From Escherichia coli (lineage in GTDB: Bacteria; Pseudomonadota; Gammaproteobacteria; Enterobacterales; Enterobacteriaceae): DNA of 2,077 nt. The notes below the pieces were generated by a model that was not told where the DNA came from, did not search any database, and worked only from the letters and a program-made list of their open reading frames with translations. The stretch lies in NCBI RefSeq assembly GCF_003334405.1, contig NZ_QOWM01000039.1, one strand, 5' to 3'. Numbering within the stretch: the stretch's first letter is position 1; every line of letters starts with the position of its first letter. Shown here piece by piece: positions 1 to 2,077 of this stretch. The translations under genes and the position numbers were made by a program.

Positions 1-180
1 CCATAAATCTGTCCCCCAATGTCATTGGCAGACAAACTGAAATCTACACATTCAATAACTCAAACCAATTACGTGTCCTTTTAAGTATATGAAATTAAAA
101 TTATTATTGGCTTTTCCGTTAAATTCTCTGCCAATTTTAAGCGTCATAAACAACCTCTTTTCCAACCATAAATTTGTCCC
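1..180. repeat. 15-bp direct repeat pair CCATAAAT[C/T]TGTCCC at 1-15 and 166-180 (14 of 15 identical), flanking an AT-rich spacer
   Basis: Read directly from the sequence: ccataaatctgtccc at 1-15 and ccataaatttgtccc at 166-180. The first copy abuts the window edge, so the repeat may extend upstream. Function unknown (iteron-like, binding site, or chance). Confidence 0.45.
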
Positions 181-258
181 TGGTTAGCTTTCAATTATTT
201 GAAATAAAAAGGAAATATAATATCCGTGCGTACGGATTCATATGCAGCATCGAAGACA

Positions 259-316
259 TTCCGCTTCCTCGCTCACTAACTCGCTCCGCTCGGTCGTTCG
301 ACTGCGGCGAGCGGAG
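259..316. other. Primosome assembly site-like element (ColE1 pas / n' recognition site homologue; candidate single-strand initiation signal)
   Basis: ttccgcttcctcgctcactaactcgctccgctcggtcgttcgactgcggcgagcgga differs at about four positions from the pBR322/ColE1 segment downstream of ori (cttccgcttcctcgctcactgactcgctgcgctcggtcgttcggctgcggcgagcgg) as I recall it. It folds into a 9-bp stem (ctccgctcg 284-292 pairing cgagcggag 308-316) with an internal gtcg-tt-cgac mini-hairpin. No ColE1 origin or RNAII-like sequence follows, so it looks like a stand-alone ssi rather than a ColE1 replicon. Confidence 0.55.
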
Positions 317-485
317 TTATTTCTCACATATCGCTGGTAATTCTGTTGTTGTTCCTTCGGTGATAAGTCGCTTGATAGCCTCTAAAACACGCTCAGAAGC
401 TCTCAGACGCACGAAACCGGGTTAAATACCCCTCAGGGCATGGGAGGCATGAAAAACGCTTACAGAGGCTTTCTGTTCATCAGAA

Positions 486-646
486 TCATGATCCTGTGAA
501 GACCGAGAAAGTTCTCATGTTTAGTCACAACCTGAATATTTCATTCCGAGGGTGGTTTAATATAACTAACTGATTTTATTGAGTTCTTTGAAAGAATTTT
601 TTTAATTATGATCCTCATTTTGCTAACCGAGGATCTTCTCATGTTT
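486..646. repeat. Degenerate direct repeat, two copies (about 486-522 and 606-646) sharing ordered blocks ATGATCCT, ACCGAG, TTCTCATGTTT
   Basis: Copy A: tcatgatcctg(486-496), accgag(502-507), ttctcatgttt(512-522). Copy B: ttatgatcctc(606-616), accgag(626-631), ttctcatgttt(636-646). Same block order with a small indel between the first two blocks, in an AT-rich ORF-poor region. Confidence 0.45.
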
Positions 647-879
647 CAATAAAATACCTTTAATATCAACATTATATATTCTTTTATCAATTGGTTTATG
701 TGACCACATCATTTCAACGATACATAAATCAACAGATCCAGTAATGCCCCCTCCCCAAAGTGTCACAGAGAAGCCCTGAATCGCGCTCTGCCGCTTCGTT
801 CGGTACAACCATGAGGGAAACCATGCAAAATAAAAAAAAATCGCTTAGAACGCGTTACAGAGCGTTTTAGGGAGGTTCT

Positions 880-1160
880 GTTAGTTCTCCTGCATTGCGC
901 CCGTAGTTCGCTGACGCTCACACGCGCAGTACAGCGCCCCGTCCAGGGAAATCCTGGACGGCGTAAACTCGCTGGCGCGAGCGCTAACTGCGGCATTCTG
1001 CGGCGCAAATCAGCGTCATCGTTGTCTGCGAGTCAGTCGGGCTTAGCAGGGCGGGAAGGTGGTCGTGGTTCCGGTCGGTTACGGTAGCGGCGTTGCCGCG
1101 TTTCGGGGCGATGTGGCTCCTGTGCTGCCCTGGTATTTTCGTTCGCCCCTTCCATCCGCT
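880..1160. other. GC-rich, ORF-free structured block with multiple inverted repeats; candidate ssDNA promoter (Frpo-like) or ssi or structured RNA
   Basis: Sharp shift from AT-rich to GC-rich sequence. Perfect hairpin ccgtccagg-gaaat-cctggacgg at 939-961. Additional short inverted repeats (cgct-ggcgcg-agcg around 971-984) and direct repeat tgcggc...tgcggc (990-1004). Possible longer-range pairing between cagcgccccg (about 932-941) and cggggcgatg (1104-1113). The ORFs in the track here are Arg-rich and mutually overlapping, as expected for chance frames in GC-rich DNA. Confidence 0.3.
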
Positions 1161-1218
1161 TACGCGGATTAAAAAACGTGATAACAATCACTTATCGAGT
1201 AAAAAAACGGAAGAACAC

Positions 1219-1247
1219 TTGCAAATACGACTTAAGGGTCGTATTAT
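1219..1247 (+). promoter_or_regulatory. Putative sigma70 promoter (TTGCAA -17 bp- TATTAT) with an inverted repeat AATACGAC-N6-GTCGTATT (1224-1245) occupying the spacer; candidate operator
   Basis: -35-like ttgcaa at 1219-1224, 17-bp spacer, -10-like tattat at 1242-1247, about 60 bp upstream of the ATG at 1310. The perfect 8-bp inverted repeat overlaps both hexamers, the typical placement for a repressor operator. Confidence 0.4.
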
Positions 1248-1309
1248 TGTTTCATCGAAAGGGGAATGGCCCCTCTCACAATAGCCCAGCAGGGCAGGAG
1301 ATTTAAAAA

Positions 1310-1825
1310 ATGAATATCCAGGAAGCATTAAACGTTTTTGGATTATCCGGCGAATTAACTGAAAAAGATATCAAAGCAGCATACAGAAAAGCCGCTTTAA
1401 AATATCATCCAGATCGTAACCCGTTAGGGGCTGAACTGATGAAAGCGGTAAATGCAGCTTTTGATGTATTAATGGCAAATATTGATAAAATAAATCAGTT
1501 CCAGAGCACCGATGAACATGCACGATATAATTACGGTGATGACCTGGAAAAAGTATTAAACGTTCTTTCTGGTTTATCTGGTCTGGTATTTGAAGTGATA
1601 GGTAACTGGGTCTGGATTAGTGGAGAAACCATTACACATAAGGAAACTTTAAAAGAAATCGGGTGTAAATGGGCGGCAAAGAAAAAACAATGGTTTTATC
1701 GTCCAGACGAACATAAAAGTTACTGGAATCGTGAAGAACACACGATAGAAGAAATCCGCGCAAAATACGGTACAACCGGACAGCGCAGGGCGACAGGGTG
1801 GCAACGCGTGGAAACCAGAGCGTAA
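1310..1825 (+). CDS. J-domain (DnaJ-like co-chaperone domain) protein, 171 aa, with an unassigned C-terminal region
   Basis: ATG at 1310 preceded by SD aggag (1296-1300) with 9-nt spacing. The N-terminal 60-70 aa have J-domain hallmarks: DIKAAYRKAALKYHPDRNP with the invariant HPD tripeptide (codons at 1406-1414), followed by a helix III-like AELMKAVNAAFDVL. The C-terminal ~100 aa (Trp-rich, GNWVWISGETITHKE...KQWFYRPDEHKSYWNREEH) lacks the Gly/Phe linker and zinc-finger of true DnaJ. TAA stop at 1823-1825. Confidence 0.85.
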   Translation: MNIQEALNVFGLSGELTEKDIKAAYRKAALKYHPDRNPLGAELMKAVNAAFDVLMANIDKINQFQSTDEHARYNYGDDLEKVLNVLSGLSGLVFEVIGNWVWISGETITHKETLKEIGCKWAAKKKQWFYRPDEHKSYWNREEHTIEEIRAKYGTTGQRRATGWQRVETRA

Positions 1826-1831
1826 CCAGAA

Positions 1832-1898
1832 CGGGGGCGAGAAGCCCCCGATATTATAGCCAGCCCGTCTTTTGGGGCATCGAACCCAAAAAGACGGG
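1832..1898. other. Two tandem GC-rich hairpins in the intergenic region (1832-1850 and 1864-1898); possible terminator/attenuator or structured element, no T-tract
   Basis: Hairpin 1: cgggggc-gagaa-gcccccg (7-bp stem). Hairpin 2: cccgtcttttgggg (1864-1877), loop catcgaa, cccaaaaagacggg (1885-1898), about a 13-bp stem with one bulge. Neither is followed by a U-run on either strand, so they are not canonical intrinsic terminators. Confidence 0.3.
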
Positions 1899-1929
1899 AA
1901 CAGCAGCCACGTAGCAAAAAGGGAAACAG

Positions 1930-2077
1930 ATGAACTCTTTTTTTGAACAATATCACCCTGTCTTTGAAGTTGTCTGCCGTATCCTGGGGAACGGCTGGCG
2001 CGTGAACAAACTTGATGATTGTTCGTCTCGTATAAAACTGACGTCACCGCAGTTTAAAAATTACTCTGTGCATATTC
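1930..2077 (+). CDS. Hypothetical protein, N-terminal fragment (ORF continues beyond the window end)
   Basis: ATG at 1930 preceded by SD-like aaggga (1919-1924). Manual translation gives 49 codons with no stop to the window edge (MNSFFEQYHPVFEVVCRILGNGWRVNKLDDCSSRIKLTSPQFKNYSVHI...). Same orientation as the J-domain gene, about 100 bp downstream. Not in the supplied ORF track, probably because it is open-ended. I do not recognise the family. Confidence 0.5.
   Translation, partial: MNSFFEQYHPVFEVVCRILGNGWRVNKLDDCSSRIKLTSPQFKNYSVHI

Follow-up and report, generated by a model that had tools for sequence, protein, structure and literature searches.

The window analysed here, by which we mean the whole 2,077-nt stretch of Escherichia coli DNA, holds the gene of a J-domain protein and the start of a second gene of the same operon, preceded by a series of non-coding elements among which a 415-bp regulatory cassette (positions 895-1309) is our main subject. 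The window is 99.7% identical to positions 25553-27629 of the E. coli plasmid pDETEC36 (NZ_CP116128.1), 2575 of its 2593 matching places in complete E. coli genomes are on plasmids, and phages have just two short stretches in common with it. A preliminary description, made from the letters alone, had proposed that the window belongs to the leading region of a conjugative plasmid and had named a chromosomal or phage location as the outcome that would speak against this; what we found is a conjugative plasmid of the MOBP/MPF_T type. Along its length the window contains the following features.

1-230, no strand: AT-rich flank of the gamma-type origin, 32% GC, starting 93 bp after the iterons and specific to the pir/iteron subtype.
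231-480: segment of 50% GC.
259-317, minus strand: ColE1 ssiA-type (phiX174-type, PriA) primosome assembly site, identified by homology to small ColE1-type plasmids.
481-760, plus strand: the true AT-rich block, 32.5% GC, with two iteron-like repeats (502-522 and 626-646) oriented as the gamma iterons are.
761-894: segment of 47% GC.
895-1160, minus strand: distal GC-rich domain of the cassette, 266 bp, 63.5% GC, with a near-invariant sub-domain at 895-1012.
1161-1309, plus strand: proximal part of the cassette, 40% GC, non-coding promoter and leader with A-tracts, sigma-70 promoter, operator, leader hairpin and ribosome-binding site, ending at the ATG.
1219-1224 and 1242-1247, plus strand: predicted sigma-70 promoter (a promoter-like match), TTGCAA, 17-nt spacer, TATTAT.
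1224-1245: palindromic putative operator, overlapping the -10.
1261-1273: leader hairpin, downstream of the palindrome.
1296-1300, plus strand: strong ribosome-binding site, AGGAG.
1310-1825, plus strand: gene of the J-domain protein, 171 aa, 40% GC, Pfam DnaJ E 4e-11.
1826-1929: segment of 56% GC with terminator-like hairpins.
1832-1898, no strand: two GC-rich spacer hairpins (1832-1850 and 1864-1898) after the J-domain gene.
1930-2077, plus strand: opening 49 codons of the operon's second gene (180-aa protein, WP_001083906.1), 42% GC.

The 30.9-kb plasmid pDETEC36 is conjugative and has an R6K-type IncX backbone with ddp1, taxC, a VirB-type type IV secretion system, taxB, topB, hha, hns, parA, bis and pir, and most of its proteins are identical to their counterparts in IncX4 mcr-1 plasmids. 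It shows the hallmarks of R6K-type IncX plasmids, namely pir together with 22-bp iterons, two origins of transfer (oriT) in long inverted repeats, and taxC accompanied by ddp1/taxA. On the minus strand, pir ends at 25164; upstream of it, at 25368-25459, are four tandem 22-bp iterons, and the window begins 93 bp past these iterons, between them and the island of small genes headed by the J-domain gene, on the origin side of the oriT copy that we call oriT-alpha. Judged from this placement, the window is where the gamma-type vegetative origin of an IncX4-like plasmid adjoins the leading region on the side of oriT-alpha.

The preliminary description had noted a mosaic of AT-rich and GC-rich blocks, and this mosaic is real. 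The window has 43.8% GC overall, strongly unevenly spread: across 100-nt intervals the standard deviation of GC is 0.110, above every one of 1000 shuffles (mean 0.048, maximum 0.067), and the values run from 0.25 to 0.67, compared with a widest shuffled range of 0.34. The GC-rich block had been placed essentially correctly (880-1160, against 895-1160 here), but the AT-rich block given as 420-840 has to be narrowed to 481-760, the wider interval averaging 37% GC because both of its ends lie at about 47-50%. An AT-rich coding region from about 1160 was not borne out either, with 1161-1309 being non-coding promoter and leader and coding beginning at 1310. Both genes are genuine and both lie on the plus strand, the J-domain gene by its Pfam match, its homologues and its structural model, and its neighbour by annotation and conservation. 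The mosaic consists of short non-coding functional modules of differing origin set side by side, and composition shifts abruptly because the interval 228-872 is a recombination hotspot, in which relatives carry toxin-antitoxin insertions.

The cassette at 895-1309 is a repeat. A second copy with 91% identity lies at 28522-28935 of pDETEC36, and both copies run to the ATG of the next gene. There are two copies in IncX4 plasmids and two to five in IncI2-type plasmids, all in one orientation and 76-99% identical; the cassette is also present in IncX6 plasmids, and an exact-pattern scan found it in contigs of Erwinia dacicola, Pantoea, Haemophilus and Acinetobacter and in two metagenome-assembled genomes. 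Every full copy abuts an annotated start codon (loci L001, L003, L004, L005, L006, L007 and L019), and in IncI2 plasmids the same set of genes, encoding the J-domain protein, the 180-aa protein, an 83-aa protein and a helix-turn-helix (HTH) protein, follows behind it. One diverged copy is found at 1065-1495 of the IncX3 NDM plasmid pNDM-HK3218 (nhmmer E 1.4e-18), where it abuts the J-domain gene.

To place the cassette among known elements, we searched a profile of 16 copies by nhmmer against R46 and the leading region of F. In R46 the profile matches three of the CUP repeats (E 1.3e-8, 1.2e-6 and 1.7e-5) and, weakly, a fourth, all oriented as the genes downstream. CUPs are situated at the 5' ends of leading-region operons, to which they bring a promoter and an ArdK-binding site (PMC5371602, PMC6289460), and the CUP regulon of the IncN plasmids pKM101/R46 goes back to Delver & Belogurov 1997, as cited in PMC3490853, PMC5371602 and PMC6289460. 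The CUPs of R46 abut the start codons of ccgAI, ardA, ccgD and ardB, and an IncI2-like relative has an annotated CcgAII behind one copy of our cassette, 54% identical to CcgAII of R46. On the strength of these profile matches we file the GC-rich block as a distant member of the CUP family. The idea that this block is a leading-region element thereby gains a definite form, that of a CUP homologue heading operons as in IncN plasmids.

Several further occurrences of the CUP sequence were noted. IncI2-like plasmids have a promoter-less copy of the GC-rich CUP domain alone, situated between the coupling-protein gene and virB11 (L005 38233-38512; L007 22736-23015) and oriented in the same way as the leading-region copies. 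A two-replicon NC101 plasmid has two partial copies comprising the first 161 nt, at 7492-7652 and 9889-10049, which are inverted and flank a 2.2-kb gene block, an arrangement that looks like a CUP-mediated rearrangement. In pDETEC36, a PGAP coding sequence named 'molecular chaperone DnaJ' (28488-28808) lies wholly inside the second CUP copy; this coding sequence, like the 'hypothetical protein' coding sequences within the IncI2 copies, is probably a mis-annotation because the copies differ by indels of 1, 2 and 4 nt.

In the proximal part of the cassette, the arms of the palindrome over the -10 covary between plasmid types, reading ACGAC/GTCGT in IncX4, ACATC/GATGT in IncI2 and CCATCA/TGATGG in IncX3, and R46 has a palindrome at the same place (CCGAT/ATCGG). 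A palindrome that changes in this concerted manner looks like the operator of a co-evolving dimeric repressor, and the obvious candidate for such a repressor is a 75-aa Xre-type HTH protein encoded in the island (28259-28486 of pDETEC36).

The distal part is remarkable for its conservation. In the outer stretch of about 115 nt (895-1012), 85 positions are invariant in 26 copies from at least six plasmid types and five other genera, and the variation is concentrated in one hairpin (P3), which exists in four compensating versions. On the minus strand, the consensus of this stretch is predicted to fold into a closed three-way junction (-38.1 kcal/mol, z -4.4). The common wobble pairs of this fold are all G-T on the minus strand, in about 70 cells and with one pair invariant, against 4 cells in the reverse case; since the G-T pairs of the minus strand would become A-C mismatches if the plus strand folded, this bias lends support, short of proof, to the minus-sense strand, which is also the predicted transferred strand (see below), as the strand that folds. 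On the minus strand of 928-980 there is, in addition, a GC hairpin CCGTCCAGG...CCTGGACGG followed by GCGCTGTACTGCG, and the complementary-strand origin of phage G4 (L010 3970-3998) has the hairpin GGACGGCG...CGCCGTCC followed by CTACTGC, the primer start.

The direction of transfer was approached through oriT. IncX plasmids have two oriT copies borne in long inverted repeats (PMC3402527, PMC3332091), and in pDETEC36 a single such pair is present, perfect over 92 nt, at 23760-23851 and 30736-30827. The right-hand one, oriT-alpha, lies directly upstream of ddp1/taxC, and 3.1 kb separate it from the window, which it follows downstream. Each oriT repeat contains one copy of the RP4-type nick octamer TATCCTGC, and these two are the only ones in pDETEC36; in oriT-alpha the octamer is on the minus strand, immediately 3' of an inverted repeat, GACAATCCGATA...CATCGGATTGTC. 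This octamer, that of RP4, fits the MOBP consensus YATCCTG/Y (nick at the slash), the inverted repeat lies 5' of the nick, and the relaxase stays bound to the 5' end made by nicking (PMC3772185). From this arrangement we infer that the minus strand leaves from 30740 toward lower coordinates. The order of entry would then be hicBA, the small-gene island, the J-domain gene and the window, with ddp1/taxC last; the window would lie 3.1-5.2 kb from the predicted nick, and the transferred strand would be the template for both plus-strand genes. This topology agrees with that of F and R46/pKM101, the two leading regions characterised by experiment, in which the leading genes face oriT and share their direction with the relaxase operon on its far side, and with that of the IncX3 plasmid pNDM-HK3218, which has TATCCTGC on the minus strand upstream of ddp1 (around 4598-4605). 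A search of the IncI2 locus for YATCCTGY did not locate the IncI2 oriT, so that the direction of transfer for these plasmids is taken from gene topology. Both the distance of oriT-alpha and its predicted orientation fit a leading region, and the leading-region proposal of the preliminary description is thus supported by the placement of the nick motif, the topology shared with F and R46, and the CUP homology, with the direction drawn from motif and topology.

Because of the inverted arrangement of the oriT copies, the 6.9-kb segment that they enclose would lead from either oriT, as opposite strands. Within it, bis and pir are template-oriented for transfer from oriT-beta, and the J-domain island for transfer from oriT-alpha. 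A 13-mer, GGGCATGGGAGGC, is found at 436-448 of the window and again at 30505-30517 of pDETEC36, just past the hicB stop near oriT-alpha.

Hundreds of small mobilizable ColE1-type plasmids have a site 96-98% identical to the ssiA-type site at 259-317, of whose 59 nt 57 match the site of pP136-8. In ColE1, ssiA is where the primosome assembles for the lagging strand, shortly past the origin (PMC3167613). In pP136-8, RNAI (Rfam RF00106) lies at 3736-3839 on the plus strand and the ssiA homologue at 3176-3233; with RNAI on that strand, RNAII runs leftward and 3176-3233 lies just beyond the origin, at a distance of about 60-110 bp from the origin as predicted from RNAI. By this comparison, the active displaced strand of pP136-8 corresponds to the minus strand of the window, which is the predicted transferred strand. 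The PriA primosome travels 5'-to-3' along its template, and a primosome loaded at this site would prime DNA that enters later; by analogy, the site may be used in conjugation. A hairpin is predicted in the ssiA region, yet it is no better than those of shuffles. Past the ssiA core, 1.5-kb cryptic E. coli plasmids (NZ_CP130672.1, NC_017629.1) match some 215 bp (259-473) at about 80-82% identity.

The first product of the operon is by its domain content a class C-like J-protein. The J-domain occupies residues 1-60 and has the invariant HPD at 33-35 that marks J-domain (Hsp40) proteins, the conserved C-terminal domain has no match in Pfam or the PDB, and the AF2 model has a pLDDT of 90.6. That the protein is DnaJ itself, which as a class A/B protein has a G/F region, a zinc finger and C-terminal client domains, is ruled out by an NCBIfam DnaJ score of 40.6 bits against a cut-off of 377 bits. 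The family numbers 3873 homologous cluster representatives. In PLSDB it occurs on 2596 plasmids, of which 83% are conjugative, in Enterobacterales, Acinetobacter, Vibrio, Enterococcus and Clostridium, IncX3 plasmids included. A tblastn search found it in just 3 of 50,697 phage records, on which ground we rejected a phage-type early gene family. DnaK, DnaJ and GrpE activate the R6K pi protein by monomerisation, which suggests pi as one possible client of the J-domain protein, yet the gene is also present on IncI2 plasmids without pi. An early or anti-defence role of the gene, as the preliminary description had it, is a guess from position.

Of the two hairpins behind the J-domain gene, only that at 1832-1850 is terminator-like, on the minus strand, and that at 1864-1898 is an inverted repeat (I9) with 14-nt arms and 93% identity. 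The gene of the 180-aa protein is kept beside the J-domain gene in IncX4, IncI2 and IncX6 plasmids; the protein has no match in PHROG, NCBIfam or PADLOC, and PHROGs, NCBIfam and PADLOC gave no function for five neighbouring small proteins. The genes ssb, psiB, ardA and klcA, which the preliminary description had suggested looking for in the vicinity, were not found in the pDETEC36 island.

On the origin side of the cassette, positions 1-227 are common to only about six plasmids and 228-2077 to many. In the gamma-origin flank, positions 1-15 and 166-180 hold a 15-nt direct repeat, CCATAAATCTGTCCC / CCATAAATTTGTCCC, 165 bp apart, which may be a protein-binding site. The block 228-872 is 94% shared with one replicon of the NC101 plasmid and absent from standard IncX4 plasmids. 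Its two iteron-like repeats are 86% alike and 71% like the iteron of pDETEC36, and they match IncX4-type iterons at 86-96%; that they are closer to these than to the plasmid's own iterons hints that the replicon of an IncX4 backbone was swapped. In pDETEC36 there are nine occurrences of the iteron core TCTCATGTTT, where 0.19 are expected, with six at the origin and the pir promoter and two at 513-522 and 637-646 of the window.

Taken together, we believe, with a probability of roughly 0.7, that the window is an origin/leading-region junction whose mosaic reflects juxtaposed modules, among them a CUP cassette that drives the J-domain operon. What the sequences themselves show is the setting in the plasmid, the repeats, their homology to CUPs, the bias of the fold to one strand, the homology and orientation of ssiA, and the J-domain, whereas direction of transfer, priming, repression, timing of expression and client belong to the proposal. 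Its best-supported form is a CUP-controlled leading-region operon that would fire in a repressor-free recipient, for which we propose the following course. During conjugation from oriT-alpha, the minus strand would enter with its 5' end leading, from a point some 3 kb to the right of the window. Two elements in active orientation on the transferred strand, the ssiA site and the near-invariant GC-rich CUP domain, would promote priming of the complementary strand. The CUP cassette would supply a sigma-70 promoter whose -10 is overlapped by the palindromic operator, and this promoter would fire in the repressor-free recipient (zygotic induction) and later be shut off by the island-encoded HTH protein, as ArdK does at the IncN CUPs. 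The first product, a J-domain co-chaperone, would direct the DnaK of the recipient to some client.

Several points weigh against this reading. We found no published measurement of the direction of transfer for this plasmid family, so the direction is one that we infer. The second oriT is inverted, so that from oriT-beta the opposite strand of the window would enter first, and neither the CUP fold nor ssiA is in active orientation on that strand. Folding energies do not separate the two strands of the invariant stretch (z -4.4 versus -4.5), and the copies of the cassette are related, so that counts such as the 70 G-T cells overstate the number of independent events. The homology to the IncN CUPs is weak, with nhmmer bit scores of 18-28 and no blastn support: blastn of the window against R46 gave no match. 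There is no known anti-defence gene in the pDETEC36 island and no ardK homologue among the island proteins, and in naming the 75-aa HTH protein as candidate repressor we are guessing. Finally, ssiA and the iteron-like repeats adjoin the vegetative origin and may serve replication, not conjugation.

For the invariant structure on the transferred strand, a role in priming is our preferred guess, because its GC hairpin followed by TACTGC echoes the primer start of G4; by analogy with what has been reported for F (bioRxiv 10.64898/2026.01.09.698686), it may alternatively act as a roadblock to conversion. A more far-reaching proposal would join these elements into one device. The CUP domain would be a single-stranded DNA (ssDNA) element specific to the transferred strand, most simply a G4-type host-primase signal or another priming signal, which starts the complementary strand just upstream of a repressor-controlled duplex promoter; promoter and operon would be made double-stranded first and fire in the repressor-free recipient, and the J-domain product would redirect DnaK. 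Such a device would constitute a second route to zygotic induction, distinct from Frpo, in H-NS-encoding IncX3, IncX4, IncI2 and IncN plasmids. We regard this proposal as speculative, with the odds clearly against it.

One other explanation for the GC-rich block is an Frpo-type ssDNA promoter, in which a hairpin of the transferred strand rebuilds the -35 and -10 so that RNA polymerase transcribes the J-domain operon ahead of complementary-strand synthesis. Place, orientation and composition of the block suit this, as it belongs to a GC-rich repeat, about 400 bp long, that is found immediately upstream of leading-region operons, and its fold is biased to the transferred strand; the Frpo regions of F are likewise of 59-64% GC and repeated at 92% identity (bioRxiv 10.1101/2025.04.03.647016). 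However, neither blastn nor nhmmer detected similarity to the F leading region, in which blastn of the R46 CUPs found no match either, and the architecture differs. A single long hairpin on the transferred strand is the architecture of ssDNA promoters (PMC9849209, PMC12672017), and the class 1 and class 2 elements of F, which sit upstream of ssb and of an ardB/klcA-type gene, each form one giant hairpin (-119 and -111 kcal/mol), whereas the cassette forms several local hairpins and a three-way junction. Moreover, no -35/-10 match was found on the minus strand within 895-1309, the sole promoter-like site is an ordinary one on the plus strand, and a search for its partner arm returned only the local palindrome. 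The cassette thus falls outside the Frpo/ssi group of ssDNA promoters in hairpin architecture as well as in sequence, and we consider this explanation improbable. The structures that had been called ssi-like or ssDNA-promoter-like accordingly come apart: an ssi element is present in the form of the ColE1 ssiA-type site, whereas an Frpo-like hairpin and a -35/-10 on the transferred strand are not.

A second explanation holds that the non-coding modules serve vegetative replication, with ssiA, the iteron-like repeats and perhaps the GC-rich structure making up an accessory (alpha-like) origin or a lagging-strand priming zone of the R6K-type replicon. The nearness of the gamma iterons, 93 bp from the start of the window, is in line with this, as are the over-representation of the iteron core and its two occurrences in the AT-rich block, the function of ssiA as a replication element in ColE1 plasmids (PMC3167613), and the description of IncX plasmids with three origins (PMC3332091). 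Yet the CUP repeat is also found in IncI2 plasmids, which have an unrelated RepA replicon, far from any origin and always abutting a start codon; the iteron-like repeats match another pir type (IncX4) and look like leftovers of recombination; and the IncX origins alpha and beta have been placed within the oriT inverted repeats, not in the window (PMC3332091). Replication would account for ssiA and the AT-rich block but not for the CUP cassette, and it is compatible with a leading region; we think this explanation an outside chance.

The conserved fold might also belong to a minus-sense RNA, an antisense or divergent small RNA transcribed leftward, and not to ssDNA. G-U pairs stabilise RNA more than G-T pairs stabilise DNA, and the wobble bias shows only which sense folds. 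Against this, we found no promoter-like site on the minus strand reading into the domain, a search of Rfam on both strands with E up to 1 returned nothing relevant, and the domain has a promoter-less copy between tra genes of IncI2-like plasmids, all of which makes an RNA very unlikely. That the GC-rich block codes for protein or is inert foreign DNA, the mosaic being a mere recombination scar, has hardly any probability: PGAP places coding sequences in several copies ('molecular chaperone DnaJ' at 28488-28808 and the IncI2 hypothetical proteins) and relatives have toxin-antitoxin insertions in this region, a hotspot of recombination, but coding is rejected on the 1-, 2- and 4-nt indels between copies, the window copy has only short broken open reading frames, conservation peaks at the nucleotide level in a 115-nt stretch with variation limited to a compensating hairpin, and every copy ends exactly at the downstream ATG.

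The reading that we favour, a CUP-controlled leading-region operon at the junction with the origin, bears on resistance plasmids, as IncX4 and IncI2 plasmids recur in this analysis as carriers of mcr-1 and IncX3 plasmids as carriers of NDM. How these plasmids establish themselves in new cells is poorly described. A survey found that plasmids encoding H-NS almost never carry Frpo promoters (PMC12826799), and our results show that these IncX4, IncI2 and IncX3 plasmids do have a repeated and oriented regulatory cassette heading leading-region operons, related to the CUPs of IncN. In addition, the analysis provides concrete candidates for early genes, namely the J-domain protein, found on 2596 plasmids, and its neighbours, defines a near-invariant 115-nt element as a target for mutagenesis, and corrects an annotation in that the 'molecular chaperone DnaJ' coding sequence probably falls inside a non-coding repeat. 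The cassette also allows early expression by repressor escape to be told from early expression by single-strand mechanisms.

With regard to known systems, pDETEC36 has the organisation of R6K and other IncX plasmids (PMC3332091, PMC3402527), including pir, bis, 22-bp iterons, two oriT copies in long inverted repeats, ddp1/taxA-taxC, a pilX-type type IV secretion system and topB-hha-hns, and differs in that its iteron sequence and pir allele are its own, the backbone being IncX4 in other respects. As far as we have read, the R6K/IncX literature contains no earlier description of the segment between origin and oriT-alpha as a CUP-controlled leading region. Within this segment, the primosome site resembles ssiA of ColE1/pBR322 (n'-pas, PriA-dependent; PMC3167613, PMC5935869), and matches the site of a ColE1-type plasmid, placed there shortly past the origin on the lagging-strand template, at 57 of 59 positions, but it is situated in a large conjugative plasmid, between an iteron origin and a leading region and about 5.2 kb from the predicted nick, and is oriented for the transferred strand. 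The G4 origin, a DnaG-dependent G4-type ssi, has in common with the CUP domain a GC-rich hairpin with a GGACGG/CCGTCC stem and a 3' TACTGC, which in G4 holds the primer-start CTG. The matches are only 6-9 nt long, however, the stem arms are swapped, and TACTGC is paired in the predicted fold of the cassette, so that we treat this resemblance as a lead and not as homology.

Similar to the Frpo/ssi promoters of F and ColIb-P9 (classes 1-3; PMC9849209, PMC12672017, PMC11541004), the cassette is a GC-rich, repeated, non-coding element upstream of leading operons, oriented to the transferred strand and thought to act in early expression. In contrast to them, its promoter is an ordinary duplex one with a putative operator, and it has neither sequence similarity to them nor a single long hairpin.

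The closest comparison is with the CUPs of IncN. In both cases, leading-region sequences several hundred bp long are directly repeated, in one orientation and fused to the start codon of an operon, with a GC-rich distal part and a proximal sigma-70 promoter that has a palindrome over its -10. They also share the colinear motifs GGCTTAGCAGGG... and CCTTCCAT followed by a hairpin, and IncI2 relatives of our cassette have ccgAII as cargo. IncN plasmids have been known since 1997 to carry this kind of element. As far as we have read, it has not been described before from IncX3, IncX4, IncX6 or IncI2 plasmids, nor have its strand-biased invariant domain or its J-domain cargo. pDETEC36 is without ardK/ardR, ardA and ardB, and its operator sequence differs from that of the IncN CUPs. 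Its presumed regulator is a small Xre-type HTH protein, its cargo is headed by a J-domain protein, and the hosts of the cassette are MOBP plasmids of the IncX and IncI2 groups, in contrast to the MOBF plasmids of IncN.

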